Source: Nostoc punctiforme PCC 73102
Lineage (GTDB): Bacteria; Cyanobacteriota; Cyanobacteriia; Cyanobacteriales; Nostocaceae
Length of the DNA: 32,000 nt
Assembly (NCBI RefSeq): GCF_000020025.1
Contig: NC_010628.1
Span: 1,260,001 to 1,292,000, forward strand
Direction: 5' to 3'
The notes beneath the pieces are model-generated. The model was not told the origin of the DNA, searched no databases, and saw only the letters and a program-made list of their open reading frames with translations. The position numbers and the translations under genes are program-made. Positions 2,013 to 32,000 of the stretch are shown here, piece after piece; the first letter of the stretch is position 1; every line of letters starts with the position of its first letter.

Positions 2013-3596
2013 TTAACCTTCAGCGCTTTCAGCACGGATGGGAATTACAATTCCTTCGCGCAGTAGTGCATCCGTAAAAATCTTCCGAAGAACGCGTTGA
2101 ATCTGAAGATGTTTTCCTGGCTTCACCTTCGTTAATGTCCGCAGCAACAAGTTAGATTCTCCAAGGCTTTCCACTCCATCTATCTGTGTACCTTCGAGTA
2201 CATCTGGATCGTTTGTTTTTAACTGTTGTCCTACCTCCTCAATCACTTTGTACACATGGGCTAAGTTGGAATTATAAGGCACACCAACTTCTACTACTGC
2301 AAAGATATACTGTTTAGAATAATTAGTAATTGGGCCAATATCTCCATTGCGAATAATCTGCAATTGACCATTGGGATGTCTAATACGAGTGGTTCTGAGT
2401 TCAATTGCCTCAACAATACCTTCGACAACTTTCTCTTCGGCTTTCCCAGCCTCGATATAATCACCCACTAAATAGTAGTTTTCAAACAGAATAAAGAAGC
2501 CGCAGACTATATCGTTTATCAGTGTCTGTGCCCCTAAACCTACAGCTATACCGACAATACCAGCACCTGCAAGTATAGGAGTTGGGTCAATGTCAAGAGT
2601 ATAGAGAATAGAGATAATAGCAGCAAAGTACACAAAATATTGTAAGAAACTACGAAAAAGAGGAACGAGTGTCAAGCGTCTACTTATTTGAATATCACTT
2701 AGATTCCGATCTTTGAATAGCACCTCTTCAACAAGTAAGTAAGCGACTTCAAACAACACACGACTAATGAAGATGATGCCGATGATCTTGATTATTCGCG
2801 GCCCAAAAGCTGCGATATTGGCGATTAACTGCACCTGCTGAATTACCAATGTTGCCATGCAGACATAAATTACAAATTCTAGACACCGTTTTAAAAAGGG
2901 TATCAGGTGTCGGAGGCGATCGTAGAATCTTAAGAGGTTATCAGGGTTGGAGTATCTGACGCTGAGAGCATCGAGAAAATCAACTACCGCCGCGACTGCT
3001 TTGAGTATCAGCAACCCGACGGCAATAATTAGATAGATTCGCAGTGCAATGTACAAATATTCCGAAACCGTTGCTGGCAATTTGAGAAACTGGGCACACA
3101 AGATTACAGCCCACAGCCAGATTCCACCACTAATTCTGTGATAGAGGGCGTTAAAGAAAGCATCAATACTTTCATCATCGGCGGTATTTTTTTCTAAGTT
3201 CTTGGCGCTAGTGCTAGCTACCTTCAGCCAATATTTCAGAAATTTTAGTGCGATCGCCGCTAACATGAAAGTGCCAATGCTCTGAGCTATTCCAATTCCT
3301 AGAGTTATCCAAAATCCTGGTGGAATACGCTCAAGCATTGCTATGGTGTATTGTTGAAGGTTTTCACCACGATAAATTAGATAACCATTAGCACCCACAA
3401 TCAAAATACATGACACCAAGCAAGCAAGTAACAACAACCCTGTAATGTTCCGACGCAAGGTTTTGATACTTCTATCTTCGCTCTTTAATATAGAGGTCTT
3501 TGTAAATAGCTTGAATAACTTGCTTACAAGCCAGTTCAGTAATAAAAAAACAAAGATTACAAGGCTGACTTCAGCTAAAATGATCAATATACTCAT
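2013..3596 (-). CDS. Mechanosensitive ion channel family protein (MscS-like, large multi-TM form)
   Basis: 527-aa ATG ORF with several N-terminal hydrophobic helices. The MscS pore-helix/beta-domain signature is present: GIVGIAVGLGAQTLINDIVCGFFILFENYYLVGDYI ... RTTRIRHPNGQLQIIRNGDI. Confidence 0.9.
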   Translation of the reverse strand: MSILIILAEVSLVIFVFLLLNWLVSKLFKLFTKTSILKSEDRSIKTLRRNITGLLLLACLVSCILIVGANGYLIYRGENLQQYTIAMLERIPPGFWITLGIGIAQSIGTFMLAAIALKFLKYWLKVASTSAKNLEKNTADDESIDAFFNALYHRISGGIWLWAVILCAQFLKLPATVSEYLYIALRIYLIIAVGLLILKAVAAVVDFLDALSVRYSNPDNLLRFYDRLRHLIPFLKRCLEFVIYVCMATLVIQQVQLIANIAAFGPRIIKIIGIIFISRVLFEVAYLLVEEVLFKDRNLSDIQISRRLTLVPLFRSFLQYFVYFAAIISILYTLDIDPTPILAGAGIVGIAVGLGAQTLINDIVCGFFILFENYYLVGDYIEAGKAEEKVVEGIVEAIELRTTRIRHPNGQLQIIRNGDIGPITNYSKQYIFAVVEVGVPYNSNLAHVYKVIEEVGQQLKTNDPDVLEGTQIDGVESLGESNLLLRTLTKVKPGKHLQIQRVLRKIFTDALLREGIVIPIRAESAEG

Positions 3597-4213: not shown

Positions 4214-6442
4214 CTAAAGGAAAGATTTAGGCTCAACATCCTGACAGTTTATCTGCACCACACAATTTCTTCCTTGTGCTTTTGCCTGGTAGAGTCCCTG
4301 GTCAGCAGCAGCAATTAAGGTTGCGGGAGATAATTGGCTATGAGGAGTGATGGTTGCCACACCAAGACTTAGAGTGATGAATTCACTGACCTGAGAATGG
4401 GGATGAGGCATTTTTAATGCACTAATATTGGTCTGAATATCTTTTGCAACTGCAATGGCCCCTTCAATATCAGTATTCGGTAAAATAACTGCAAACTCTT
4501 CTCCACCATAACGAGCAACTAAATCAGCAGGGCATTTAACTGTTTGAGAGATTACCTTGGCAACCTGTCTGAGGGCATCATCTCCTGCCAGATGTCCATG
4601 CGTATCGTTGTAAAGCTTAAAGTAATCGACATCACACAAAATCAAAGATAGCGAACCTTGCTCTCGTGCCAATCGTTGCCACTGTGTGTTGAATGTGTCA
4701 TCAAAGCAGCGTCGATTTCCCACTTGGGTCAGACCATCTGAACAGGCAAGGCGCTGTAATTCCTGGTTTGCTTGTTGTAATTGGTGGTAAAGTTCTGATT
4801 GCTGAATAGCGATCGCAGCTTGTCCTGCTAACTGGTTAAACAAGTTAATCTCCGATTGCTGCCATTGTCTGGCATTACGGCATTGATGAGCAATCAATAG
4901 TCCCCACAAACGCTCTTTCTGCAAGATAGGCACGACAAGGTTTGCCCGGATTTGCAAACTCCGCAGGAGGTCAAGATGACACGGCGATAATCCAGCAGTT
5001 TCAACGTCTTCGATTGCTCTGGTGTTACCTTGTTGAAAGTAAATTGCACGGGTAGATTTAAAGCATGTGTCCATAACGTGAAATCCCAGAATGGACATAC
5101 ACTCTTCTGCTAAGGATTCTACAGCTACTAATCCACTCCAGTCTGACTCAAACTGGTAAATTATTACTCGGTCTACCTCAAACAGTTGCCGCACTTCGGC
5201 TGCTGTGGTTTGCAAAATCTCGTCTAACTCTAACGATTGTCGAATGCGCTGCGTCACAGCCGCGACAATTCGCTCGGACTCATTTTGGTGTTGGACATGC
5301 CGCTTAAGCAGCTTAGAATCTGTCGATGCTACATTTAACGTGATCGGATTAAAGTGAGGGGTTGTAGTGACAGGCACTGCACTAGGTTTAGCAATCAAAT
5401 AGCCTTGAGCAAGATTTGCACCTCGTTCTCGCAGCCAGTTCAGTTCCTCAATACACTCAATTCCTTCAGCAACGGTCTGGATGTTTAACTTTTGAGTAAT
5501 CTCTAAAAGCTTCTCGGTAATCGAAGCTTTGTAAAGGTCTTGATGTACATCTCGAATTAACTCCATATCCAGCTTGATAAAGTCTGGACGTAACTGATGC
5601 AGCAAGTTTAGGCTGGAATAGCCAGAACCAAGGTCATCAAGAGCTACTAAAAATCCAGCATCCCGGTAGTATTTAAGCACTGCCTTGAGATGGGTTAAAT
5701 CTTGAGGATTATCTGATTCCACAACTTCAAAGACAACGCGATCGTGGGAAATTTCGGCAGTATCAATTGCCTCAACTGAACTACTTAGGCAAAAAGCTGG
5801 ATCGTAAAGTGATGTTGGCGCAAAATTGATGAAGATATGCCCACTCACTTTATACCGACTGAATTCAGTGATTGCGCTGAGGCGAGCAATTTGGTCGAGT
5901 TGTGGTATTAGTCCGGCTTCGGTTGCTAACTCCATAATTGGTGTCGGTAGCATTAAATTCCCTTCTTCATCCAGCCCCCGCAAAAGCGATTCATATCCAA
6001 AAATCTGCGATGTATCCTTAATTGAGACAATTGGTTGAAAGTAACTGGTGAATCGTTCCGTTGCCAGCATTTCAAACAGCCAGTCGGATTGGTTCAACTT
6101 AATGAAGCGTTGTAATGAGGCTATGTCACTAAAATCATGGAGTTGAGGTTGGATATTACCTTGAATGAAAAGGACTTGCGTCTCTTTTAATTCTCTAGGT
6201 GCAAGTAGTTTGGCCAGGTTACGGGCAATTTCTATGGACTGTCCGGGTTTACACTTCAAACTCAAACCTGGTCGCTCGTGCATCAGTTCATACTCAAGTC
6301 TAAGCTGCTGTAGGTAGGAGGTGGCTTTTTTGAGGGTATGTGTAACGGGGAACCAGAGAAAGAGCCTTCCTGCCTCCTGAGTCTGGCAGCGTGCAACATT
6401 GCGACAAGCACAGGTTTTGGAGATAGAACATATCTGGCTCAT
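4214..6442 (-). CDS. c-di-GMP turnover protein with domain order N-terminal region, EAL, GAF, GGDEF
   Basis: 742-aa ATG ORF. EAL-domain motifs: FQPIVS, YESLLRG (ESL variant of EAL), FINFAP, EVVESD, LDDLGSGYSSLNLL, IKLDMELIRD, VAEGIE, AQGYL. The central GAF-like region runs LDEILQTTAAEVRQLFEVDRVIIYQF...LLIAHQC. The C-terminal GGDEF domain has DGLTQVGNRR, DVDYFKLYND and RYGGEEFAVIL. Confidence 0.9.
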   Translation of the reverse strand: MSQICSISKTCACRNVARCQTQEAGRLFLWFPVTHTLKKATSYLQQLRLEYELMHERPGLSLKCKPGQSIEIARNLAKLLAPRELKETQVLFIQGNIQPQLHDFSDIASLQRFIKLNQSDWLFEMLATERFTSYFQPIVSIKDTSQIFGYESLLRGLDEEGNLMLPTPIMELATEAGLIPQLDQIARLSAITEFSRYKVSGHIFINFAPTSLYDPAFCLSSSVEAIDTAEISHDRVVFEVVESDNPQDLTHLKAVLKYYRDAGFLVALDDLGSGYSSLNLLHQLRPDFIKLDMELIRDVHQDLYKASITEKLLEITQKLNIQTVAEGIECIEELNWLRERGANLAQGYLIAKPSAVPVTTTPHFNPITLNVASTDSKLLKRHVQHQNESERIVAAVTQRIRQSLELDEILQTTAAEVRQLFEVDRVIIYQFESDWSGLVAVESLAEECMSILGFHVMDTCFKSTRAIYFQQGNTRAIEDVETAGLSPCHLDLLRSLQIRANLVVPILQKERLWGLLIAHQCRNARQWQQSEINLFNQLAGQAAIAIQQSELYHQLQQANQELQRLACSDGLTQVGNRRCFDDTFNTQWQRLAREQGSLSLILCDVDYFKLYNDTHGHLAGDDALRQVAKVISQTVKCPADLVARYGGEEFAVILPNTDIEGAIAVAKDIQTNISALKMPHPHSQVSEFITLSLGVATITPHSQLSPATLIAAADQGLYQAKAQGRNCVVQINCQDVEPKSFL

Positions 6443-8638: not shown

Positions 8639-10069
8639 TTATGAATTATTCGGATTGCTATAGTATTTGTGTCCTGCCATAGCCATAGCTAAAAATCCCC
8701 AAAGAATCATCCCTGCCACACTTAACATTCCACTACCAATAATTAGCTGTGTAGCTGAACTGATACCAATCGCACGAGCAGCACTGATAAAACTATCAAA
8801 ACGTCCTTCACCATAACTGCTAACACTAATAATTAACAAGATTAATCCACCCATATAAAAGATTGCTCCAAACCAACCAAGGGTGAAAAACATATCTAAA
8901 ATGCCACTATCAATGACCACTACTTCAATTTGACCAGTTTTTTCGTTGACTTTCCAAATATTTCCTAAGCCGTTACCTAAACCATTAGAAAGGGCTAGAC
9001 CAAGGTTTTTGTCATAACTTCCCGATCTATCTTTAAAACTGGTATCTTCTTGAAGATTAGAAAAAGTTTCCAAACGGGCTGATACAACTCCAGCAATTGG
9101 CTCAATAGTTGTCAATGGTACAACACAAATTGCCATCACCGCAATTATGATGATTAAGCGCATTTGAATTCGCGCCTTGACTGAAGCCACAATCATAATT
9201 ATTCCAAATAACCAGCCTCCCCAATTAGTCCGTGCTTGTGTTAGTAGAAACGACAAGTAACCAACAGCTGAAGCAGGAAAAATTAAATTTCCCGAACTGG
9301 TAAATAACAACAGTAAACCAGCTTGCATGACGGAACCAAAAGGCCCGACTGAGTGCAATGTACTCCAGACACGCATCCCGAAAGGTACAGGGTTTCCAGA
9401 ACTCATGAATAGTTTTGATTGGATGAGCCAATACCTATCCCACTCAGGAGCTACTACGAATTGATATATGCCATAAGTTCCTAAAATTAACACACACCAA
9501 AGAAACGTTCGCTGAATATTCTGGCGATAGCTAGGATAATCTCGCCAGTTTATAAATAAGTGAAAAGCGAAGATAATCGGACTGAGCCAATCCAGCAGTC
9601 CGCGTGCTACAGGGATTGGTGGGTTATAAATCAGACCGATAAGAAAGCCATAAAAGACTCCGATAAAAGCCATAACAAACGGCAAACCCCCTTGATGTGA
9701 GGCACGGGGAAAATGTCGCAAGAATGTTGCTATGGTTACAAACACTACCAAGTATGGTGCTATAAGCATCTGGCGGGTAGCGTCCCAACCTACCCGATAA
9801 TCAACTAAGCGGGTAGCCAAGGGTGTGAGAAACCATATCCACCAGGTAAAGCTGACGTAGAGAATGGGATGCCGCAAGTATAAAAACACGGCTACTGCTA
9901 AAGCAGTCACGGGATAAATTAGGCGCAATGCAGCAGTAGCACCAGCAAAATAGCAAACTACAGTTAGTAGTATAAAGCCTGCGATCGCCATCCACCCCTG
10001 TTGCGATCGCTCTTCTGGAGAATAATTTTCTTGTGAAAAACTATTGAAAAGTATCTGTCTAGAATTCAT
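8639..10069 (-). CDS. Polytopic membrane protein, Wzy-type polymerase / O-antigen-ligase-like
   Basis: 476-aa ATG ORF that is hydrophobic almost throughout (10 or more predicted helices by eye). One larger loop lies in the C-terminal third (ETFSNLQEDTSFKDRSGSYDKNLGLALSNGLGNGLGNIWKV). It is embedded among glycosyltransferases. Assignment rests on topology and context, not on a strict motif. Confidence 0.65.
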   Translation of the reverse strand: MNSRQILFNSFSQENYSPEERSQQGWMAIAGFILLTVVCYFAGATAALRLIYPVTALAVAVFLYLRHPILYVSFTWWIWFLTPLATRLVDYRVGWDATRQMLIAPYLVVFVTIATFLRHFPRASHQGGLPFVMAFIGVFYGFLIGLIYNPPIPVARGLLDWLSPIIFAFHLFINWRDYPSYRQNIQRTFLWCVLILGTYGIYQFVVAPEWDRYWLIQSKLFMSSGNPVPFGMRVWSTLHSVGPFGSVMQAGLLLLFTSSGNLIFPASAVGYLSFLLTQARTNWGGWLFGIIMIVASVKARIQMRLIIIIAVMAICVVPLTTIEPIAGVVSARLETFSNLQEDTSFKDRSGSYDKNLGLALSNGLGNGLGNIWKVNEKTGQIEVVVIDSGILDMFFTLGWFGAIFYMGGLILLIISVSSYGEGRFDSFISAARAIGISSATQLIIGSGMLSVAGMILWGFLAMAMAGHKYYSNPNNS

Positions 10070-10128: not shown

Positions 10129-10248
10129 TGACCAATACTTCGACTTACCTCGGCTCCGGTTCCATCGAGCGAAGTCGAGATGCTCGGCACGAGTCCTCAG
10201 TACAAGTGACCAATGACAAATGACTAATGACTAATGACCAATGACAAA
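10129..10248. repeat. Hairpin core element (acttcg...ctcagtacaag) bracketed by tgaccaa-type STRR heptamers
   Basis: A single tgaccaa lies at 10129-10135 and the core spans 10137-10206. Six heptamers follow at 10207-10248: tgaccaa tgacaaa tgactaa tgactaa tgaccaa tgacaaa (tgaccaa = complement of STRR TTGGTCA). The array overlaps the last codons and the stop of the GT2 gene ending at 10231. Confidence 0.8.
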
Positions 10249-11157
10249 TTCTTTATATCCCTGCCAACGCCCACGCCAAGATGCTAGCAATTTTTTCCCC
10301 GCCAATTGTCCTTGGCTAGGTAAAAATCTCAGCCATTGTACAAAACCCAAACTATCGCACGTACCTACAAATACTGCCCAGAATAAAAATACAATCCGGC
10401 GGATAAATGGCAGATGCTCTAGTAAAACTAAGGTTTCATTATGGACTAAATTGATAAAGGCAATTTCGTTAAAGTTATTTCGCTGATCTTCATCAAAACG
10501 TTGTGCAGGATAGTGATCTACAGCAACATTAGGATCGTAAATTATCTTCCAACCAGCCCGCTTTAATGCCAGAGTAAATGCCATTTCAAAATGTACCTGC
10601 GCTCCAGTACCACGCATCCGCTCGTCAAAGCGTAATTGTCCAATTGCCTCTTTACGAAAACTCATGTTTACGCCTTTGAGAATATCGACTTCGCGGGGTT
10701 CTCCCACTCCCAGATGATGGTTGCCAATCACTCGTCCAAACCACTGCAACTGTCCCACTACTGGGCGAGATTCATCTTCTAATTTGCTGCCGTGGTATAC
10801 CCAATCACGCCCTCCCAGACCGCCGAGGTGACTATCTGAGGTAAAGTAAGCGGCGATGCGCTCTAACCAATCTGGGTGTGGTGCAGCATCATCATCAGTT
10901 ATGGAAACTATATCGCCCTCCACTGCTGCTAATCCGGCGTTGAGGGCTGCTACTACGCCTGGTTGTGTCACTTTCACAGTATGCAGTGGCAGATTAGGCG
11001 CGTTTAATTGCGCCAAAAATTGCCAAGTTTCTGCATCCGTATCGCGGACAACCACTATCACCTGATCGACGGGTTTAATTTGCTTCTGTAGCGCTAAAAG
11101 GCAGCGTGATAGGTCTTGTGGACGGCGATAAGTTGGTATCAGAACGGTGTTCCGCAT
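10231..11157 (-). CDS. Glycosyltransferase family 2
   Basis: 308-aa ATG ORF with a GAGGAG Shine-Dalgarno about 10 nt upstream. The N-terminal GT-A signature is VLIPTYRRPQDLSRCLLAL...VIVVVRDTD, and the DxD-type motif is ITDDDAAP. Confidence 0.9.
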   Translation of the reverse strand: MRNTVLIPTYRRPQDLSRCLLALQKQIKPVDQVIVVVRDTDAETWQFLAQLNAPNLPLHTVKVTQPGVVAALNAGLAAVEGDIVSITDDDAAPHPDWLERIAAYFTSDSHLGGLGGRDWVYHGSKLEDESRPVVGQLQWFGRVIGNHHLGVGEPREVDILKGVNMSFRKEAIGQLRFDERMRGTGAQVHFEMAFTLALKRAGWKIIYDPNVAVDHYPAQRFDEDQRNNFNEIAFINLVHNETLVLLEHLPFIRRIVFLFWAVFVGTCDSLGFVQWLRFLPSQGQLAGKKLLASWRGRWQGYKEFVIGH

Positions 11158-12277
11158 TCTTGCTTAACTCCTCGAATAGATCCACATAAGTTTGTGCCAT
11201 AGTAGTCCAGCTATGTTGTTCTGCCACAGAACGAGCAGCTTTGCCCATTTGCTTTATGAGGGTGGGACTACTCACCAAAGTCAGCAATGCCAGAGCCAAA
11301 GCATCACTATCATCTGAGTTGGATAAGACGATGCCACATTCTGGTGTCACCAACTCTCCGCCCCCGGTGGCTGTGGCAGTAATTACTGGCAGTCCTGAAG
11401 AAAGTGCTTCTAACAATACGAGGCTGCAAGCTTCGTATCGGGAAGGAAAAACAAATAAATCTACTGCTTGCATAATTTGGGGGATATCACGGCGAAATCC
11501 TACAAAATGCACGCGTTTACTTAACCCTAATGATGCTGCTAACTGCGGGAAAGGGCTATTTTGGGTGTGTCCCACTACCACCAAATGTAAATCGGGAACT
11601 TTCACCAAGGCGTGCAGTACTGTATCTAAGTTCTTTCTGGGTGTGCGGATATCTCCGGCGAATAATGCCAGGGTGACATTCTCCGGTAAACCCAACTTTT
11701 GGCGATCGCTTTCACCAGGAGTAAACTCGTCTAAGTCAACGCCATTGACAATTACGCGAATGCGAGAACGCGGCACACCAATGTTGACTAATTCGTGGGC
11801 TACTTTTTCTGATACTGCTACGACAACCTGCGCTTTTTGGAAAGCCTGTTTTTCCCAACGGGCATTAAAAGCCGTAAACAGCCATTGGTAAAAACCATAA
11901 AAATCACGGCGGTTGCGAGAAATATGAACAGGCGATCGCAACCATGAACTATGGACAAAATGTACAGCATTCACATCAGCCGCAGCCAGATTAATTGCGC
12001 CATTGACTTTAACTAAATCAATCTCAGAGCGATGTTTCCGTAACCAATCTGTACTTTTTTGGGCAAATACGAAATTACGTACAAATTCTGTCGGATAATC
12101 TTTGACTGGAATTGGAATCCAATTAACTTGACTATTAGCTTCTAATTCTGGTGCGACTTCACTAGCTAATAATGTTAGTTGATGACCACGACGAATTGCT
12201 TCATTAGCAACCTCATAGTTTACTCGTCCCTGCCCATCACCTTTTTTAATTTTATGAGTAACAATACAAAGTTTCAT
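11075..12277 (-). CDS. Glycosyltransferase, GT-B fold, family 4-like
   Basis: 400-aa ATG ORF. Motif: DLFVFPSRYEACSLVLLEALSSGLPVITATATGGGELV. The 3' end overlaps the next gene by 83 nt. Confidence 0.9.
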   Translation of the reverse strand: MKLCIVTHKIKKGDGQGRVNYEVANEAIRRGHQLTLLASEVAPELEANSQVNWIPIPVKDYPTEFVRNFVFAQKSTDWLRKHRSEIDLVKVNGAINLAAADVNAVHFVHSSWLRSPVHISRNRRDFYGFYQWLFTAFNARWEKQAFQKAQVVVAVSEKVAHELVNIGVPRSRIRVIVNGVDLDEFTPGESDRQKLGLPENVTLALFAGDIRTPRKNLDTVLHALVKVPDLHLVVVGHTQNSPFPQLAASLGLSKRVHFVGFRRDIPQIMQAVDLFVFPSRYEACSLVLLEALSSGLPVITATATGGGELVTPECGIVLSNSDDSDALALALLTLVSSPTLIKQMGKAARSVAEQHSWTTMAQTYVDLFEELSKNAEHRSDTNLSPSTRPITLPFSATEAN

Positions 12278-14914: not shown

Positions 14915-15754
14915 TTATATGCCAACATTAAACCAAAGCTTGTGTCTAACATCACTCACATAATGTCTGAGAGCAATGTTTTTACTTGCAGATTTATCTG
15001 GATAAATAAACTGATCTTCTACATTTAGAACATATTTATTTGAGCATAGAGGTTTACCATGATTGTGGTGCATGGTCAAATGTACAATTGTTTGCTCAGT
15101 AAAATAACTAGGAACTTCTGGAAGATTCGCTAAACGTTCGATAGCAAAACTCCAGTCAAATTCATGCCTAAATATTATAAATCCACCATTTACAGGATTC
15201 GATTTCTCGGACTCATCATAAATAATCCGCTCATCAAGCGACATCGAACAATCAGGTAGATAAAGAGAGTATTTTTCGTCCGACTTACTCAAATCAATTA
15301 AGTCAATCCCGCCAGGAAAAAATAAAATATCTGAATCAGTGTAAATCGTAGTACCATTAACAGGAATCGACATTAATGCCGACAACTTTCTGCCCATTGG
15401 ATGCAGTTGGGCATAATCAAGAACACATTGAGGTAAATCTGTTCTCAGGAAGTTTTGTAAAAGTATTACCTGAACGCAGGGATGGATACGGCGGAGTAAA
15501 TTACAACTAGAATCAGTATAACTACCATCGGAAACTACAGTAAATGTCTCTGGAATACCGACATGGCGAATGAATGAGCGAATACTTGCTACTTGTTCTG
15601 GTAGATCGCGTTCGCATGATAAGGCATAGATACTTACCGGAACTTGCCGAGTTTGCTTGATGGGGATGTTGATAATCTGAGAAATGGCTGCTTTATATAG
15701 AGAACGATTAAATTTACCCTGAATTTTAGCAGTGTGGTAGCCTATATTTACCAT
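14915..15754 (-). CDS. Conserved-looking hypothetical protein, possible GT-A (GT8-like) nucleotide-sugar transferase
   Basis: 279-aa ATG ORF with AAGGA upstream. It has a DxD-like IYTDSDILFF, NGGFIIF (compare GT8 N-x-G-[VL]) and a late RHYVSDVRHKLW (compare GT8 H-x-x-G-x-x-KPW). I see no membrane segments. The functional call is tentative. Confidence 0.5.
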   Translation of the reverse strand: MVNIGYHTAKIQGKFNRSLYKAAISQIINIPIKQTRQVPVSIYALSCERDLPEQVASIRSFIRHVGIPETFTVVSDGSYTDSSCNLLRRIHPCVQVILLQNFLRTDLPQCVLDYAQLHPMGRKLSALMSIPVNGTTIYTDSDILFFPGGIDLIDLSKSDEKYSLYLPDCSMSLDERIIYDESEKSNPVNGGFIIFRHEFDWSFAIERLANLPEVPSYFTEQTIVHLTMHHNHGKPLCSNKYVLNVEDQFIYPDKSASKNIALRHYVSDVRHKLWFNVGI

Positions 15755-15798: not shown

Positions 15799-15904
15799 AA
15801 TTCGTAATTTATATTTTGTAAATTACGAATTACGAACTATGAATTACGAACTTGTACTGAGCGACTTGCCCTGAGCGCAGTCGAAGGGAGCCGAAGTATT
15901 ACGA
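15799..15904. repeat. Second copy (opposite orientation) of the hairpin core element, bracketed by attacga heptamers
   Basis: ttcgtaat lies at 15801-15808. The heptamers attacga attacga actatga attacga span 15822-15849. The core cttgtactgag...gccgaagt is at 15851-15897, followed by a single attacga at 15898-15904. The core ends match the reverse complement of 10137-10206. The hepA-like stop codon (15899-15901) lies in the flanking heptamer. Confidence 0.8.
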
Positions 15905-17740
15905 ATTATAGTATTGCATCTGATGATATTCCCACAGCTTGCCTTGGCGTGCGAGTAATTCTTGATACTTGCCCTGTTCTACTATCCGTCCTGCTTCTAG
16001 TACTACGACTTTATCTGCTTTCGCAATAGTAGAAAGACGGTGAGCGATCGCAATTACTGTTCTACCCACAGATAGCTTTTCTAATGAATCTTGAATTAAG
16101 CGCTCGGATACAGAATCTAAAGCACTAGTTGCTTCATCCAAAATCAAAATTTCTGGGTTCCGTAGTAGTGCCCGTGCGATCGCAATTCGCTGTCTTTGTC
16201 CTCCAGATAATCTAACACCCCGATCTCCCAATTGGGTATTAAAACCTTCGGGCATTTCTAAAATAAATTCCAGCGCATTCGCTAATTTAGCAGCTTCTTG
16301 AATTTGCTCATTAGTAGCTTGTGGAGTACCATAAGCAATATTTTGCCAAACATCAGTATTGAAGATAAATGTATCCTGACTGACAACAGCTATTTTACGA
16401 CGTAGAGAGTTAATTTCAAATAGTCTTATATCAACTTCATCGATATAAACATTTCCCTCTGTGGCATTGTAAAATCGAGGGATTAAATCAGCAAGGGTGG
16501 TTTTACCAGCACCAGAGGCTCCGACTAGTGCAGTCATTTTTCCCTTTTCAATGGTTAGGGTAATGTTATGCAGTACTATATTTTGGTCATCGTAACCGAA
16601 ATCTACAGATACTAAATTTATTGCCCTTTCTAAAGCGTTAAACTGAAGTTTTCCATTCTTAAAATAATTTTTATCATCACTTTTCAACAAATTTTTAATG
16701 TTGTCTGCCGAGCCATGTAGAGTACTGAGAAATGCTCGTGTGCCATTAATATCTTGAACAAACGGAATGAAGCGAAATAGTACAAAGAAAAATGTTAGCA
16801 AAGAAGCAACTTGTAGCGTTCCATTACTAACCAGGCTAGTGAATGCCAAAATAATCATTCCCACCAACACCGTAGTGGCTGCCCCTTCGGCAATTGGCTT
16901 GACAAGTGTCCAAGTAAATACAACTTTAGTTGTAGAACTTACTACCTTATCGCTAGCTTTGTAGTAACGCTGGCGTTCAAATTCTTGAGTACCACAAGAA
17001 TGAACAGTGCGAATGCCATTAATAAATTCTATGGCTGTTGATGTAAAGTTAGCATTAGCAGTTGTCATGCCAAAACTTGATTCTCTGACTCTGGCATTCA
17101 GATTAGATAACCCTACACCTAAAAGTGTAAAGAGTAATGCTGAAATTACAGTCAGTTGCCATGATATCAAAAACATTGATATTAAGTAGACAAGAGTTGT
17201 TATCCCTCTAGATACTAAAAATGCTGCACCACTAAAACCCTGCCTGATCCTTTCGATCTCTGTGGTTATTGTGTTAATTAGTTCACCAGAACGAGTTTTG
17301 GCAAAGTAACTTAACGATAAGGATTGTAACTGTTCAAAGATTTGCTTTCGTAAGCGATCGCCAAAATGTAGTTGAGATAATTCAGTATAAACTTGTCCAA
17401 AATAATTGAAAGCGACACGTAACCAAGTACTTAATAATATCAGCGAAGATATGCGGTATAGACGATTAATTGCTGAGGAATTAGATCCCAATACTAAATT
17501 ATCAAACCATTCTATTCCTGTTTGGACAGGTTGAGCATTGGGACTAGTTAAGCTTTGCAAAAAGGAAAGTAAAAAACCAATACTTACTCCTTCAAAAGTT
17601 GCTGCTAAAATCGAGAATGTCAGAGCTAAAATTACTATTTTGCGAAAGTGTTTAAATTCTCGCAATATCAAATAGTTTTCTTGCCAAAAGCTAGAAGCTT
17701 TGAGCAGACTACGAAATTTTTGAGGAAGCTGAAAATTCAT
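15899..17740 (-). CDS. hepA: MsbA/PglK-type ABC exporter (fused TMD-NBD), HepA-like
   Basis: 613-aa ATG ORF with an N-terminal six-helix ABC_membrane-type domain. Walker A is GASGAGKTT, the signature is LSGGQRQRIAIARALL and Walker B is ILILDEATSALD. It sits immediately downstream of a HepC-like gene, as in the Anabaena PCC 7120 hepC-hepA pair. The symbol is assigned by context and family, not by a search. Confidence 0.8.
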   Translation of the reverse strand: MNFQLPQKFRSLLKASSFWQENYLILREFKHFRKIVILALTFSILAATFEGVSIGFLLSFLQSLTSPNAQPVQTGIEWFDNLVLGSNSSAINRLYRISSLILLSTWLRVAFNYFGQVYTELSQLHFGDRLRKQIFEQLQSLSLSYFAKTRSGELINTITTEIERIRQGFSGAAFLVSRGITTLVYLISMFLISWQLTVISALLFTLLGVGLSNLNARVRESSFGMTTANANFTSTAIEFINGIRTVHSCGTQEFERQRYYKASDKVVSSTTKVVFTWTLVKPIAEGAATTVLVGMIILAFTSLVSNGTLQVASLLTFFFVLFRFIPFVQDINGTRAFLSTLHGSADNIKNLLKSDDKNYFKNGKLQFNALERAINLVSVDFGYDDQNIVLHNITLTIEKGKMTALVGASGAGKTTLADLIPRFYNATEGNVYIDEVDIRLFEINSLRRKIAVVSQDTFIFNTDVWQNIAYGTPQATNEQIQEAAKLANALEFILEMPEGFNTQLGDRGVRLSGGQRQRIAIARALLRNPEILILDEATSALDSVSERLIQDSLEKLSVGRTVIAIAHRLSTIAKADKVVVLEAGRIVEQGKYQELLARQGKLWEYHQMQYYNS

Positions 17741-17853
17741 GGATTTTATAATAATAGTTTGGCAAGGTAGAGAGACCGCTATAGATGCAATGTAGTAATT
17801 TTTGCGTTAGCCTCAGTGCGGTAGATGAAATCATCAATTACCGCACAGATAAA

Positions 17854-18576
17854 TTACAGTGTTTGGCTATCTAGATGTAACAGGTGAGATGCCTCTACTT
17901 CCCAGGAAGCTTTGATGTCTGGTAATTTATTTAGCTGTACTGCATCTTCCAAAGTCCAGCAATGAGATCCACCACCAGTTAAACTCATGTCACCCCGCAG
18001 TACGTTAAATAACTGTGGGAGATTGTCGAGATTGTATTTACCTATCCAACGCCCTAGTGGTGTGATATTGTGCGTACAAAACTTCATTGCTTGAAAGAGT
18101 TTACCCCGTTCTCCAACACGCCATTCACTACAAAAAAGCGATCCTGGTGAGTAAACCTGCATTAATGCAATCAATCCCAGCATGACTGGACTTACTAATA
18201 GCAGCAATACTAAAGCAGCAATCCAATCAATTAATCGCTGCAATTGTCTCCAGGGTTGATTAGAAGGTTTATTGCCAGCAGGTATGCTTAGGAATATTGG
18301 TTTTTGAGCTTCTTGACATGCATCTGCCCAAAACCTGAGCAAAGCCTCACCTAGCTTTGGATCTATGCTTACCAAACTTACCGGAGAATGTTGTAAGCAT
18401 TTTACTAGCGATCGCTTACTATCTAATGCAGGCAGATATGGTTGTTTAACTCGTCCAGGCTGCTTTACCAACAGCTGACCCTGCCGCCACTGGAGTGTGC
18501 AACACCCACGATTATCTTGGTGTTCCTGGGTTACATCATATAAATTCTCTACAGTTGGAATTATTGAAGCTGTCAT
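17854..18576 (-). CDS. hepC: HepC-like protein: N-terminal soluble domain, one TM helix, then a degenerate and truncated bacterial sugar-transferase (PGT) domain
   Basis: 240-aa ORF. The Bac_transf-like segment is QRLIDWIAALVLLLLVSPVMLGLIALMQVYSPGSLF...RVGERGKLFQAMKFCTH...LDNLPQLFNVLRGDMSLTGGGS. The expected catalytic motifs are altered: DE becomes DN, KFRTM becomes KFCTH, and GPRP becomes GGGS. Confidence 0.75.
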   Translation of the reverse strand: MTASIIPTVENLYDVTQEHQDNRGCCTLQWRQGQLLVKQPGRVKQPYLPALDSKRSLVKCLQHSPVSLVSIDPKLGEALLRFWADACQEAQKPIFLSIPAGNKPSNQPWRQLQRLIDWIAALVLLLLVSPVMLGLIALMQVYSPGSLFCSEWRVGERGKLFQAMKFCTHNITPLGRWIGKYNLDNLPQLFNVLRGDMSLTGGGSHCWTLEDAVQLNKLPDIKASWEVEASHLLHLDSQTL

Positions 18577-19104: not shown

Positions 19105-19138
19105 AAAAAAGTAGGGTAGCACATCTGTGCTACCCTAC
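19105..19138 (-). terminator. Rho-independent terminator downstream of the Wzc-like gene
   Basis: The minus strand reads gtagggtagcacagatgtgctaccctac followed by TTTTTT. The plus-strand stem arms are 19111-19121 and 19128-19138, and the A-run is 19105-19110. It lies 72 nt after the stop at 19211. Confidence 0.8.
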
Positions 19139-19210
19139 CACGTGTTGTATTTAAACAGATTACCTCCCCAACTCCTTAAATAAGTCAGGGAGCGATCGCA
19201 GCCATACTAG

Positions 19211-21439
19211 CTACTTTTCCACAGCTTGACGGAGAGCCAATTGCTGTTGTTTGATATAAGGTACGTAATTACTGCTAGAGTTTGATACCCCATTAGCTAC
19301 AACCCCAATCAGGTTTAACTTACTTAGCATTGCTGTAGCCTGAGTCAACTGGCTTCGTGTCACAATACCAATGCTTGCCACCATGACCACACTACGACAA
19401 GATGATGCCGTAAGCATGGCATCCACCAAACCAAGAACTGGGGGAGCATCTATGAGTACCAAATCATAGTTTTCCTCAAAAGCTGCCATCAATTGCATCA
19501 TTCGGGGAGAACTCAACAGATTAGCTGGGTCAGCAGGTTTGGGCCCAGCAGTTAAAATATCGATGTAGGCGGAACCTGCGTATTGAAGACTAATCTGGCT
19601 GGGTAGACTTGCATCACTCGCTAGTAGAGTTGAAAGCCCTTGTTCATTAGGAAGATTCAGTTGGTGGTGCAGGCTGGGATCGCGTAAGTTGGCATCAATT
19701 AGTAACACTCTTTTGTGTAAACGAGCAGCACTCATCGCTAAACCTAACGCCAAAGCTGACTTACCCTCATCTGGTAAAGCTGAGGTAATCATCAAAGATT
19801 TCAAGTTAGCAACAGTATTTAAAAGTTCAATGTTCTTGTAAATTAGATCCAGCGATTCCCAACGTGGTGGAGATTGCAATACCTGAATTGTCCAAGGGGC
19901 GAGAACTTCTGGCTTGCCAAAGGGCAATTTGATCATTGATTCTCTGGGTTTAGCTGGCGGCAACTTGGGGGTTGTTCCTAACAAAGGTAGAGCCATTTGC
20001 TTCTCTAACTCGGCAGTGGTATGAACTGCATCATCAGCCGAATCTCGAATAAAGGCAGCAATGCCTCCTAACATCAACCCAACCACAGCACCTAACAGCA
20101 AGTTCTGTTGGAGATTGGGGCCTAATTGTGCGCCTTTTTGGGGATCTTCTACCACTTCCCAATTAAATCCACCCTTGGAAAGTTCTTGCCGCAATTGCTG
20201 TTCTGCTCTTAAAAGCTGCTCTAACCTTTCACGACTAAATTGCAACTGCGGTAGCATCCGATTGTAATAAGCCAAAAGAGGCGGGAAGCGTTTGATTTCC
20301 AGACGTAGCTCGTTTTCTTTCTGAGCTAAACTTTGATCGCGGGCAGTTAAAGCAACTATAGTTGTCTGCGTTTCTACTAACTGACCAGCAAGGCTAAGAT
20401 CAATTTGGCCAAGTTGTCCTTTTTCAAGAAGAGAGTCTCCAGAAGTGAATGCACTAGCAGACTTTTCACCTAAAGTTCTTCCTACTTCTTGTTGCAATAA
20501 TTCCTTCTGACCTTGAAGCTGTTCTTTGAGCTTTTGCACACTTGGAGTCTGATCTGTAAAGCGTAAGCGTTCTTGTGCTAGTGCCAATTCGCTTTTTTGG
20601 ATTTCGTTCAGTAAGCCTTGATAGCGAGTAGACTGACTCAGGCGAGAAGCAACTAGAGCATTTTGAGGAGAACGGTTAAGTTGTTCTTCCAAAGATTTTT
20701 GGCGTGCTAAGGCTTCGCCATACTGAGCGCGAGTTGTCTGTCTTTCTTGAGCGATATTATTTAAAGCTGTCTCAATCGCTTTGGCCTGTGACTCTGGATC
20801 AATTAAGTTCTGATTTCTGCGAAACCTTTGTAAATTAGTTTCAGATGCGTTTACTTCTTCACTAGCTTTACTTAACTGTTCCCTAATAATTTGCAGACCT
20901 TTTTGTAACCGTGAAGTCTGCTGTTGTTTGTTATATTCCAGATAAACTTGTCGAATTGCGCCCAGAACTTTTTGTGTTTTTTCTGGATCTCCAGCAGTGT
21001 ATTCAACTTGAAAGATTTTTGTAGCAACATTATCTTCTTTGCTTCTCAATTGAGTTAAGACTAAAGAAGCTTTAATTTCACCTGTACTGATATCTGGATA
21101 ATCAGACTGAAGTTTATCAACTGCTTTTTGGATAAGTCCAGAACTCTGCATCAAGTTAAGCTGAGTTGCAGTATCTATCACAATATTAGAGTCAGTAAAC
21201 TGGCTATCTACCCCTGCTCCTTCTTTCTTACCTTGATAGTTGGATTCTACTAGCAGTTGCATTGAACTTTTATAAGTTGGTTTAGTTTTTAAAGTTACGA
21301 TGCCTGCTATAGCAATAGAACTAATTAATACTGCTAAAAACCAAGGAAATCTTCGCACAAATACGGCAAACAATTGTCCGTAAGTTGGCTCAGTTTCAGA
21401 GGCTGGATTTATTTGAGGATTTAGACTAGTTTGAACCAC
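19211..21439 (-). CDS. Polysaccharide co-polymerase / BY-kinase-like protein (Wzc/GumC type)
   Basis: 742-aa ORF with a GTG start. The Wzz-like N-terminus has TM1 (FPWFLAVLISSIAIAGIVTL) followed by KPTYKSSMQLLVE. A long coiled-coil periplasmic region leads to TM2 (LLLGAVVGLMLGGIAAFI). The C-terminal P-loop domain has Walker A ALPDEGKS, A'-like VLLIDANLRD and Walker B DLVLIDAPPV. Confidence 0.85.
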   Translation of the reverse strand: MVQTSLNPQINPASETEPTYGQLFAVFVRRFPWFLAVLISSIAIAGIVTLKTKPTYKSSMQLLVESNYQGKKEGAGVDSQFTDSNIVIDTATQLNLMQSSGLIQKAVDKLQSDYPDISTGEIKASLVLTQLRSKEDNVATKIFQVEYTAGDPEKTQKVLGAIRQVYLEYNKQQQTSRLQKGLQIIREQLSKASEEVNASETNLQRFRRNQNLIDPESQAKAIETALNNIAQERQTTRAQYGEALARQKSLEEQLNRSPQNALVASRLSQSTRYQGLLNEIQKSELALAQERLRFTDQTPSVQKLKEQLQGQKELLQQEVGRTLGEKSASAFTSGDSLLEKGQLGQIDLSLAGQLVETQTTIVALTARDQSLAQKENELRLEIKRFPPLLAYYNRMLPQLQFSRERLEQLLRAEQQLRQELSKGGFNWEVVEDPQKGAQLGPNLQQNLLLGAVVGLMLGGIAAFIRDSADDAVHTTAELEKQMALPLLGTTPKLPPAKPRESMIKLPFGKPEVLAPWTIQVLQSPPRWESLDLIYKNIELLNTVANLKSLMITSALPDEGKSALALGLAMSAARLHKRVLLIDANLRDPSLHHQLNLPNEQGLSTLLASDASLPSQISLQYAGSAYIDILTAGPKPADPANLLSSPRMMQLMAAFEENYDLVLIDAPPVLGLVDAMLTASSCRSVVMVASIGIVTRSQLTQATAMLSKLNLIGVVANGVSNSSSNYVPYIKQQQLALRQAVEK

Positions 21440-26593: not shown

Positions 26594-27445
26594 TTAAGTC
26601 GAAGCTTTAACTGCATCAGATGCAGAACGTAACTCTGCTCTGGGATAAGTATCATCCCAGTATTGGGTGCAGAGGTCTGGCCGTTCAGGAGGATTGGCGG
26701 TGTAACAAAAGAATAGTGTTGACCGGTCTTCTGTACGAACTGTGCCGTGATGTAAAGCATTTTTCGTATCTACAATAATGACTGTACCTGCTGGACCTGG
26801 GCAGGATTTCCAAGCTGATTTGGGGATGACTGGTTTTACTTGTTCATCGTCGATACCCATATAGCCTGACTTCCAAAGTTTGTAGTAAAGTCGAAAATAA
26901 TTCCAACTAAATAAGGAAGTTAACGAGCGAGGGATGTATTGAAAAGGCCCAGTTTTTTCTTCTACATCATTCAAGTAAATAATGATTTTGATAATCCGTC
27001 GGTCTTCGGCATCGCTATGCCATAGTAGCGTCCCAAACTGATGTTTACTCTTGAAATCTTTGCGTAAATGTACACCATGAAAAGCAATTGGAAGACCGAT
27101 ATAATTTTCGATGATGTTGAGTAGCCTTTTCTCTATCCCCCAGGCATAAAATTCTGGTAAACCTGTAACTGTATAAATTTGTGGCAATCTTTCATCTAGA
27201 TGCTCATTGGTGGGATTTTCCATCTGAAACAATTGATGGTGAGCAGCTTTGAGCAGTTCTGAGCTAGAGTCGAACCCTAAATCTGCCAAGTTGGTGACGC
27301 AAACACCATCTTTTTTGAGGGTCTTAAGGATGTTGCGATCGCTTCCTGCTAATGCTGGCAGATTTTTGCTATGCTTCCAACGAGCTAGGTAATATTCAAA
27401 GTCAGATGAGAGTGTAGCTATTTTGCGTTTAATCGCTTTGAACAT
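26594..27445 (-). CDS. Fe(II)/2-oxoglutarate-dependent dioxygenase, PhyH-like
   Basis: 283-aa ATG ORF. The facial-triad candidates are WHSDAED (HxD) and a distal ALHHGTVRTEDRS (His followed by Arg 9-10 residues later). This spacing pattern is typical of phytanoyl-CoA-dioxygenase-type enzymes. Confidence 0.65.
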   Translation of the reverse strand: MFKAIKRKIATLSSDFEYYLARWKHSKNLPALAGSDRNILKTLKKDGVCVTNLADLGFDSSSELLKAAHHQLFQMENPTNEHLDERLPQIYTVTGLPEFYAWGIEKRLLNIIENYIGLPIAFHGVHLRKDFKSKHQFGTLLWHSDAEDRRIIKIIIYLNDVEEKTGPFQYIPRSLTSLFSWNYFRLYYKLWKSGYMGIDDEQVKPVIPKSAWKSCPGPAGTVIIVDTKNALHHGTVRTEDRSTLFFCYTANPPERPDLCTQYWDDTYPRAELRSASDAVKAST

Positions 27446-31541: not shown

Positions 31542-32000
31542 CTATGCAGTTACTGCAATATCTAGATGCGAGGGTTGGGGAATTTCTGCTACAAGCGCTT
31601 TGCCGATTTCTAGAGAAGATGTGGCCGCTGGAGAAGGAGCATTGCAAACATGGATGGAGTTTTGACCGGAAACAATCAAAAAGTCGTCTACAAGTTTGCC
31701 GTCGTTCATTAAGGCTTGAGCGCGAACTCCTGCGTGGGTGGGAACTAAGTCTTCTGCTTGGACTTCGGGAATTAGTTTTTGCAAACTTCTGGTGAAGGCT
31801 GCTTTACTAAAGGAACGAATGATTTCTTGGATGCCTTCATCAGCGTGTTTGGCTGCCAATTTCCAGAAACCAGGATAGGTGACGACTTCAAGAAAATCTC
31901 GTAAGTCAAAGTCGGTTTTTTTGTAACCTTCGCGTTTGAGGGATAGAACCGCATTTGGTCCTGCGTGAACGCTACCATCAATCATCCGGGTAAAGTGGAC
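31542..32000 (-). CDS. lhgO: L-2-hydroxyglutarate oxidase (FAD-dependent), 3' portion; the gene continues beyond the window
   Basis: The C-terminal sequence is (VHFTR)MIDGSVHAGPNAVLSLKREGYKK...GVRAQALMNDGKLVDDFLI...IHVCNAPSPAATSSLEIGKAL. This matches my recollection of the LhgO/YgaF family C-terminus. The reading frame stays open to position 32000. Confidence 0.8.
   Translation of the reverse strand, partial: VHFTRMIDGSVHAGPNAVLSLKREGYKKTDFDLRDFLEVVTYPGFWKLAAKHADEGIQEIIRSFSKAAFTRSLQKLIPEVQAEDLVPTHAGVRAQALMNDGKLVDDFLIVSGQNSIHVCNAPSPAATSSLEIGKALVAEIPQPSHLDIAVTA

Follow-up and report, generated by a model that had tools for sequence, protein, structure and literature searches.

HepC of Nostoc punctiforme is probably a pseudoenzyme of the monotopic phosphoglycosyl transferase superfamily, retained in the heterocyst envelope polysaccharide island

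The described enzymes to which the cyanobacterial protein HepC is most closely related are the monotopic phosphoglycosyl transferases (monoPGTs), among which PglC of Campylobacter (PDB 5W7L/8G1N) represents the small members, and WbaP, WcaJ, and EpsZ represent the large ones. HepC has carried the annotation of a sugar transferase for 25 years, and since 1998 it has been treated as the 'UDP-galactose lipid-carrier transferase' of HEP synthesis; in the papers searched it is named as a glycosyltransferase or as 'UDP-galactose lipid carrier transferase'-like, and NCBI names it as a glycosyltransferase. The hepC gene considered here lies in a 32,000-nucleotide stretch of Nostoc punctiforme PCC 73102 (contig NC_010628.1, positions 1,260,001 to 1,292,000; hereafter the window), among the genes for the heterocyst envelope polysaccharide (HEP). 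A first-pass annotation of this DNA, made from its letters by eye, had noted that the phosphoglycosyl transferase (PGT) domain of HepC appears to be degenerate in its catalytic features, and had put the protein forward as a candidate pseudoenzyme or regulator. The comparisons described below bear this out: catalytic columns that are invariant in relatives from the Pleurocapsales have been lost or have drifted in the Nostocales, under purifying selection, and HepC is very probably not a working PGT in any Nostocales sequence sampled.

Much is known about the residues in question. In monoPGTs, the Asp of an Asp-Glu dyad attacks the β-phosphate of the UDP-sugar to give a covalent phosphoglycosyl-enzyme and also coordinates the essential Mg2+, and Lys59 is likewise essential for catalysis (PMC10541605). 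(Residue numbers of this kind are those of C. concisus PglC, the sequence of which was taken from a PDB alignment.) The substrate is oriented by K59, R88, and the Arg of the PRP motif, which are conserved across monoPGTs, while a C-terminal Asp, D168, stabilizes the re-entrant membrane helix (PMC12802240). The PRP motif binds the nucleotide, and full turnover requires an aromatic box in the C-terminal part (PMC10186338). R88 and R145 both mediate the binding of undecaprenyl phosphate (UndP); an R88Q protein has minimal activity, and R145A or R145Q results in a 100-200-fold loss (PMC10519829).

The hepC open reading frame (ORF) encodes 240 amino acids plus a stop, beginning with an ATG codon, and its N-terminus, MTxSIIP, is kept in orthologues. 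The window protein scores 333 bits, where 140 is the cut-off, against NF045514, the NCBIfam equivalog model called 'heterocyst development glycosyltransferase HepC', with residues 1-215 matching positions 1-220 of the 220 in the model, so that it stands above the cut-off over the full model; its best database matches are Nostoc HepCs with 94-96% identity. Pfam Bac_transf (PF02397) matches with an E value of 5.9e-21 (75 bits, gathering score 27). This match is partial, extending from HepC residue 114 to 208, or from position 2 to position 113 of the 179 in the profile, and it falls short of a whole domain. Models of working polyprenyl-phosphate hexose-1-phosphate transferases give only 44-84 bits, against cut-offs of 295-907.

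Like PglC, HepC has a PGT domain with the R-x-x-D plus Ser-Pro signature of the re-entrant helix, the GxxGKxF β-hairpin, and the LPQLxNVLxGxMSL helix, on a core that superposes at 2.1 Å. Unlike PglC, it has an additional N-terminal domain of 110 residues, it lacks the dyad Glu, R88, PRP, R145, the stretch after KFxTM, and the C-terminal ~32-40 residues (which hold the aromatic box and the helix-stabilizing Asp), and it is predicted to be inactive. The motifs were placed using HMMER alignments to WbaP (8t53) and PglC (8g1n), and MAFFT alignments with PglC and intact relatives, and the PGT-type motifs that had been seen by eye within residues 111-240 are present in them. In the HMMER alignments only HepC residues 104-168 and 170-201 align, ending at MSLtG, and ~34 WbaP residues after KF are skipped. 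The sequence QRLID (residues 113-117) corresponds to PglC K7-R8-x-x-D11, giving Q113, R114, and D117 in HepC, and S129-P130 corresponds to the PglC helix break S23-P24; P130 is invariant, and S129 is present in 116 of 117 orthologues. The two parts of a re-entrant helix, the basic-R-x-x-D motif and the Ser-Pro break, are thus both found. Farther along, GERGKLFQAMKF and LPQLFNVLRGDMSL are both present.

It is in the catalytic elements (the dyad, the K59/R88 pair, PRP with R145, and the C-terminal segment) that HepC is deficient. The dyad, PglC L-D93-E94, is L183-D184-N185, at exactly the nucleotides that the first-pass annotation had assigned to it. KFCTH replaces KFKTM, with PglC K59-F60-x-T62-M63 represented by K165-F166-C-T168-(H169). 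The segment that follows, which had been judged by eye to lack about 20 residues, is indeed deleted, by 14 residues relative to PglC, by ~24 relative to intact HepC-like proteins, and by ~34 relative to WbaP; a 26-residue block present at this point in Pleurocapsales-type proteins is missing from the window protein. R88 is replaced by G179, and PglC G110-P-R-P113 is replaced by G203-S204-H205-C206. The loss of MSLVGPRP had therefore been recognized correctly, but the assignment of GGS as the counterpart of PRP was wrong, because two Gly residues (within G201-G203) are inserted before S-H-C in the window strain and its nearest relatives only. The sequence LPDIKASWEV had been taken as a vague counterpart of PG(I/L)TGxxQ, and it is a remnant of PGITGxxQV; orthologues read LPGITGSWEV, and in the window protein PglC P134-G-I-T-G138 is P219-D-I-K-A223. 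The R145 column is a gap in the window protein. HepC ends at about the equivalent of PglC D157, so that the last ~32 residues of the domain are missing, including the helix-stabilizing Asp (D168/169). The early end, noted at first as about 40 residues, comes to ~40 relative to full-length PglC and 28-32 relative to intact relatives, and the aromatic box is gone with it. With these changes the acid/base/Mg2+ machinery and the arginines that serve nucleotide and UndP binding have been lost. In addition, a cationic pocket has become more acidic through Q45 to E151, Q141 to E226, and R145 to Q/E.

A split gene or a recent nonsense mutation was considered as the source of the short C-terminus and was rejected: when the canonical 41-residue tail was aligned with the three frames around and downstream of the stop, scores were at the level of shuffled sequence, and no relic of the missing tail was found downstream of hepC.

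Structure prediction gives a similar picture of the core. A first AlphaFold2 (AF2) model, made from a Nostocales-only alignment, had a pLDDT (predicted local distance difference test) value of 62, and a mixed alignment of Nostocales and Pleurocapsales sequences was used instead. The resulting model (pLDDT 74.5, predicted template modeling score 0.67) is confident for the N-terminal domain and the core, with pLDDT values of 86-94 over residues 51-100; residues 1-22 and 220-240 are disordered, the latter with values <50. A Foldseek search with this model returns WbaP and PglC first, PglC (8g1n, 8e37) superposing with a root mean square deviation of 2.1-2.2 Å over 104-124 columns. HepC is therefore predicted to keep the monoPGT core fold.

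Insight into how these changes arose comes from a comparison of HepC with its relatives. An exhaustive HMMER search yielded 25,721 relatives, of which the best 150 cluster representatives were examined (lists of the best 120 over-represent Nostoc). The HepC N-terminal domain is common to nearly all of these representatives. A minority are fully canonical, having KRD, SP, K59, R88, DE, GPRP, PGTG, and R145 in order; these proteins are ~310 residues long, with a 26-residue post-KFxTM segment and a 28-residue tail. They belong to the Pleurocapsales (Pleurocapsa, Stanieria, Xenococcus, and Waterburya), and NCBI names them HepC too. The proteins of Stanieria cyanosphaera PCC 7437 (309 residues) and Pleurocapsa PCC 7319 (310 residues), for example, share with the window HepC the N-terminal domain, the NCBIfam model, and 38-45% identity; they differ from it in being the products of non-heterocystous hosts, in having kept the catalytic columns, and in having a full Bac_transf domain (>200 bits; 204-215 bits among the intact Pleurocapsales proteins, over positions 1-178 of 179), and they are presumably active priming enzymes. 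In Stanieria PCC 7437, the one locus at which the synteny of an intact HepC-like gene was checked, genes for a 744-residue Wzc-like protein, the 309-residue intact HepC-like protein, and a 616-residue HepA-like ABC exporter show the gene order of the window. Most of the ~150 representatives, many of them truncated, have an altered dyad (DN, DK, DR, DQ, DG, NK, and others).

When 119 Pleurocapsales-type proteins are set beside 117 Nostocales HepCs, the difference is consistent from column to column. In the former, K7, R8, D11, R47, K59, R88, D93, P111, R112, P113, R145, D157, and D169 are invariant (119 of 119 at each of the columns compared here), E94 is Glu in 118 of the 119, and the C-terminal tail is present. 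In the latter, the tail is absent from all 117 proteins, E94 is Asn in 116, P111 is Ser in 102, P113 is Cys in 95, and R145 is Gln or Glu. Other columns have drifted: D93 is Asp in 87, Asn in 16, His in 6, Glu in 4, and Gln in 4; K59 is Lys in 54, Arg in 34, and Ser in 21; R88 is Gly in 48, Arg in 30, His in 16, and Cys in 11; and R112 is Arg in 66, His in 22, and Cys in 11. The conservation among orthologues of the two sequences first read as DN and GGGS is thus divided: the Asn is conserved, the Asp before it is variable, and the Gly-Gly insertion is restricted to close relatives. Even the HepC of Nostoc sp. ATCC 53789, which is 94% identical to that of the window, has the dyad N-N. A further 44 Nostocales proteins (from Scytonema, Brasilonema, Heteroscytonema, Kalymmatonema, Iphinoe, Trichormus, Anabaena, Halotia, and others) likewise have no Glu, no tail, and Cys for the last Pro of PRP, and this pattern persists even where the post-KFxTM insert has been kept or expanded. 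Because these 44 lack the Glu and the tail whether or not the insert is kept, the oldest lesions are E94N, P113C, the loss of R145, and the truncation, and loss of the insert together with drift of K59, R88, and the nucleophilic Asp came later.

Elsewhere in the same Nostocales proteins, many positions are invariant or nearly so, including W152, G155, G158, F161, W177, N185, L186-P187-Q188, N191, G195, W207-T208-L209, and much of the N-terminal domain. Catalytic positions that erode progressively and by lineage, beside structural positions that do not change, are the mark of a pseudoenzyme. The possibility that the Glu had merely been relocated, by the Nostocales change of Q45 to E151, was also tried, but no consistent coupling of this change to the loss of E94 was found over the ~150 representatives.

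Selection on hepC was assessed by pooled Nei-Gojobori estimates of the ratio of nonsynonymous to synonymous divergence (dN/dS) at 81 loci, 80 from Nostoc genomes and the one in the window. None of the 81 ORFs is interrupted, and they encode 233-243 residues. The overall dN/dS is 0.25, with values of 0.23 for the N-terminal domain, 0.22 for the re-entrant helix, 0.19 for the catalytic core, and 0.24 for the tail; the neighboring hepA and Wzc-like genes have values of 0.094 and 0.078. HepC is thus constrained throughout its length, about 2.7 times less than its neighbors. Synonymous divergence at the 3' end of the gene is not reduced, and the family has been kept across >15 Nostocales genera since their common ancestor. 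Consequently, hepC is retained under purifying selection and is not a pseudogene, and HepC combines what is expected of a pseudoenzyme: homology to an enzyme family, loss of essential residues, and purifying selection.

If HepC does not prime HEP synthesis, then another protein must. A candidate is All4160, a protein with STAS and Bac_transf domains that is encoded outside the HEP island, is required for the Hep layer in Anabaena, and is switched by HenR/Alr3423 phosphorylation (PMC13555669). The existence of a second Bac_transf protein that is required for HEP makes a pseudoenzyme reading of HepC more coherent. As a whole, it is likely that HepC is a pseudoenzyme kept as a non-catalytic membrane subunit of the HEP system, with priming carried out elsewhere; within the HEP machinery HepC would probably serve as a scaffold or as a regulator, and priming is probably done by the distant, putative priming enzyme All4160.

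In such a scheme, the starting point would be an ancestral cyanobacterial module of a Wzc-like protein, HepC, and a HepA exporter, still intact in the Pleurocapsales, in which HepC was the priming enzyme. HepC of the Nostocales would be the membrane-anchored descendant of this small monotopic PGT, with its extra N-terminal domain of ~110 residues. The heterocystous lineage would first have lost the dyad Glu, Arg145, the final Pro of PRP, and ~32 residues from the C-terminus; sublineages such as Nostoc would later have lost the post-KFxTM segment, while Lys59, Arg88, and the nucleophilic Asp drifted. The resulting protein would be unable to form a phosphoglycosyl-Asp or to bind UDP-sugar and undecaprenyl phosphate in the canonical manner, and All4160 would have taken over priming in this lineage. 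On the cytoplasmic side of the membrane, HepC could then be an adaptor or regulator through which the actual priming PGT is linked with HepA and/or the Wzc-like protein, so that its loss would stall HEP synthesis and, secondarily, perturb the expression of hepA.

A different role, which is possible but unlikely, takes up the sensor half of the 'sensor or scaffold' suggestion in the first-pass annotation and is that of a transcriptional-feedback sensor of lipid-linked intermediates or of the status of the envelope, which would repress hepA, for example via HepK/DevR. Constitutive expression of hepA in hepC mutants is reported (Zhu et al. 1998), and a sensing function could fit the conserved N-terminal domain with its many cysteines. 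However, the hepC stop and the hepA start are separated by just 113 bp (17741-17853), in which no terminator-like site was found. With so short a gap and no terminator, the DNA that controls hepA must extend into hepC coding sequence, and insertions in hepC may therefore alter hepA in cis, through read-through or upstream elements. In addition, the N-terminal domain is also present in the catalytically intact Pleurocapsales proteins, and so did not evolve for sensing specific to the Nostocales, and the basic residues that bind UndP have been lost.

It is improbable that HepC is still the priming PGT of HEP by way of a divergent site, in which Asp184 would work with Asn185, Glu151, or Cys206, perhaps with a partner supplying the C-terminal elements in trans. 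This explanation draws on the fact that the island has no PGT-like gene besides hepC, as had been noted at the outset: no other Bac_transf domain, and no MraY/WecA-type domain, was found in the 22 other window ORFs of at least 120 residues, and six-frame tblastn of the window with PglC and two intact relatives matched hepC alone. It also draws on the presence of D184 and K165 in the window protein, on the conservation of N185, E151, and C206 within the Nostocales, and on the reported need for hepC in HEP formation in Anabaena PCC 7120 (Zhu et al. 1998; Huang et al. 2005). Against it, 30 of the 117 orthologues, that of the 94%-identical strain among them, have N, H, E, or Q in place of the nucleophilic Asp, and because the nucleophile is dispensable among such close strains, a re-tooled active enzyme is unlikely. 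Furthermore, variation or loss affects each of K59, R88, the PRP Arg, and R145, and nothing is left of the C-terminal third that binds uridine and UndP; the change of Q45 to Glu does not follow the loss of E94 across the wider family; HepC evolves ~2.7 times faster than hepA; and All4160 is required for HEP as well. Finally, the idea that hepC is a decaying pseudogene, or a mere carrier of hepA regulatory DNA whose protein has no function, would account for its progressive motif loss, truncation, and faster evolution than its neighbors, but it is hardly credible, since the selection data (intact ORFs in 81 of 81 loci, dN/dS of 0.19-0.25 for each part of the gene, with the dead core no exception, maintenance in >15 genera with many invariant residues, and undiminished synonymous divergence at the 3' end) exclude a pseudogene.

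Several points do weigh against the reading of HepC as a non-catalytic subunit. With D184 and K165 in place, weak or altered activity is possible for the window protein alone. The Asn that replaces the dyad Glu is almost invariant, and C206 and E151 are conserved specifically in the Nostocales, which could reflect a site that has been re-tooled rather than emptied. The loss of catalysis is, for all HepCs, a prediction from sequence, and the motif state of alr2834, the hepC of Anabaena PCC 7120, is taken from that of 160 other Nostocales sequences. The assignment of priming to All4160 is a proposal drawn from the literature, and the contacts of HepC with HepA, the Wzc-like protein, or All4160 are putative.

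If HepC is indeed a pseudoenzyme, then the priming step of HEP synthesis needs to be reassigned, most plausibly to All4160, and the old phenotypes of hepC mutants (no HEP, altered hepA expression) should be reread as the loss of a scaffold or regulator, or as an effect in cis. The Pleurocapsales and Nostocales proteins form a natural pair, one live and one dead, in the same gene neighborhood, which makes the question directly testable. While the hepC gene itself is known, three things appear to be new: the non-catalytic nature of its product, the live Pleurocapsales counterpart in the same neighborhood, and the wide range of relatives without the dyad. Among the papers searched, none describes HepC as non-catalytic, and none links phosphoglycosyl transferases with pseudoenzymes. 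If the reading is true, HepC would represent, to our knowledge, the first pseudoenzyme branch to be documented in the monotopic PGT superfamily.

Changes in the dyad are also seen in proteins that have the HepC N-terminal domain together with a full-length PGT domain. Many such cyanobacterial proteins (P0134, P0142, P0150, P0152, P0180, P0187, and P0197) have a dyad that reads Asp-Lys, Asp-Arg, or Asp-Gln, and the cluster of one of them, P0187, includes a Phormidesmis 'HepC'. Loss or change of the dyad seems, from these alignments, to be widespread, and possibly recurrent, in the family that combines the two domains. A more tentative proposal, which we consider somewhat doubtful, is that HepC is the founding case of a widespread class of cyanobacterial pseudo-PGTs, the non-catalytic members of which would have arisen repeatedly (DN, DK, DR, DQ, and others) and would serve as dedicated adaptors, connecting a PGT that is active in priming (All4160, for example) with an ABC flippase/Wzc export machine and gating polysaccharide synthesis after translation.

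The same diversity has consequences for annotation. A single equivalog name, NF045514, is applied both to intact 310-residue PGTs of non-heterocystous Pleurocapsales (P0299, P0330, P0379) and to the degenerate 240-residue proteins of the Nostocales, and this naming is an over-reach in both directions.

The N-terminal domain, an α/β domain of about 110 residues that had been left without assignment, has no sequence match in Pfam, NCBIfam, or the PDB. Its predicted elements are a β-hairpin (27-38), a helix (54-63), a strand (68-71), a second helix (77-89), and a second strand (94-96). C26, W30, R31, C60, S64, W83, and K92 are invariant in both clades, and C87 is nearly so. Three cysteines are thus invariant or close to it in intact and dead proteins alike (C87 in at least 90% of sequences), and C26, C60, and C87 may form a metal or redox site. 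A further cysteine, C206, is fixed in the Nostocales at the position of the last Pro of PRP.

HepC resembles All4160/XssP-type STAS-Bac_transf proteins in having a soluble N-terminal domain before the Bac_transf domain, and both AF2 models give weak STAS-like Foldseek hits for the N-terminal domain (1vc1_A, with an E value of 0.05 and a template modeling score of 0.41, and RsbS), a resemblance that is suggestive given that STAS-Bac_transf proteins occur in cyanobacteria. It differs from them in that the domain is without a STAS signature, and All4160 is encoded outside the island and is regulated by HenR and Alr3423. No Pfam STAS match was found in 19 N-terminal domains at E values up to 10, an hhalign comparison with SpoIIAA (its sequence entered by hand) gave a probability of 0.06, and the phosphorylatable Ser is missing from the STAS-equivalent position in HepC. 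If the domain were STAS, HepC would be an inactive paralogue of All4160; this identification is without support from Pfam, the PDB profile search, or hhalign, and it is kept as a lead only. Among the large monoPGTs, WbaP (8t53) is the best PDB match to HepC in both sequence and fold. However, HepC is without the four-helix transmembrane bundle, the CoA_binding_3 domain of unknown function (DUF; by Pfam), and the catalytic residues of WbaP, and the large enzymes have a regulatory DUF and depend on dimerization; control of monoPGTs by accessory domains or partners is seen with the DUF and dimer of WbaP and with EpsW-EpsZ (PMC10942596, PMC12802240). The idea that the HepC N-terminal domain is part of the WbaP DUF was set aside, as it has a sub-threshold TIGR03022 alignment only and no match to Pfam CoA_binding_3.

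The position of hepC in the window, directly upstream of hepA and downstream of a gene for a Wzc-like protein, is that expected for HepC (Table 1). In Anabaena the order is alr2833, alr2834 (hepC), and alr2835 (hepA), within a HEP island that extends from alr2825 to alr2841 (PMC4390870). The surroundings in the window mirror this island, with GT1 and GT2 glycosyltransferases and dTDP-sugar enzymes around the triad, and the adjacency of hepC and hepA is kept in the Nostoc loci and in Stanieria.

Table 1. Coordinates of hepC, its parts, and neighboring features (positions within the 32,000-nucleotide window)
Feature	Position	Strand	Basis or remark
hepC ORF, HepC orthologue and probable pseudo-PGT	17854..18576	-	ORF list, NF045514, partial PF02397
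N-terminal soluble α/β domain, residues 1-110	18247..18576	-	Conserved in Nostocales and Pleurocapsales
Re-entrant membrane helix region, residues 111-141 (QRLID ... LVSPVML)	18154..18246	-	PglC alignment
PGT catalytic core remnant, residues 142-200	17977..18153	-	HMMER to WbaP/PglC; Foldseek superposition on PglC
Junction H169/N170, post-KFxTM segment deleted	18067..18072	-	WbaP 386-419 unmatched; PglC columns 64-79 filled 2/16
Degenerate Asp-Glu dyad, L183-D184-N185	18022..18030	-	Replaces PglC L-D93-E94
Degenerate PRP nucleotide-binding motif, S204-H205-C206	17959..17967	-	PglC G110-P-R-P113 = G203-S204-H205-C206
Short divergent C-terminal tail, residues 207-240	17857..17958	-	Contains LPDIKASWEV
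hepA, MsbA/PglK-like ABC exporter	15899..17740	-	NF045513, 1066 bits; Pfam ABC_membrane and ABC_tran
Wzc-like polysaccharide co-polymerase/tyrosine autokinase (alr2833 type)	19211..21439	-	Pfam Wzz and P-loop; TIGR01007, 120 bits (cut-off 108)
Terminator-like hairpin between Wzc-like gene and hepC	19110..19139	-	13-bp stem, 7 G-C pairs, T run; consensus match only
Island flank, EAL-GAF-GGDEF cyclic di-GMP protein	4214-6442	-	
Island flank, MscS-type channel	2013-3596	-	
Island flank, M23 peptidase	528-1439	+	
Other end of island, L-2-hydroxyglutarate oxidase fragment	31542-31985		

The Wzc-like gene and hepC are separated by 634 bp, and the terminator-like hairpin in this gap lies ~530 bp upstream of hepC. 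The size of the gap together with the hairpin suggests that hepC has its own promoter. No NtcA box (GTA-N8-TAC) was found near hepC, and the count of such sites over the whole window is at the level of chance.

The HEP island extends from about 7048 to 31109 and lies wholly within the window. Two of its ORFs, for GT2 and GT4 proteins (10231-11157 and 11075-12277, both on the minus strand), overlap by 83 bp as listed, and the true start of the downstream gene is probably an internal codon. Outside of Nostoc genomes, a hepC that is 89% identical to that of the window occurs at locus L007, an 11-kb contig (CAZZZY010000136.1) of a metagenome-assembled genome labeled 'uncultured Acetobacteraceae bacterium'; this contig is almost certainly mis-binned Nostoc DNA, as might arise from a lichen or symbiosis metagenome. 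Three minus-strand ORFs of the island (8639-10069, 14915-15754, and 26594-27445, encoding 476, 279, and 283 residues) have no Pfam or NCBIfam match. The 476-residue protein is, by its position and size, a candidate Wzy-like polymerase or ligase, and the Stanieria locus (L001) has an unassigned ORF of 470 residues at a similar position.

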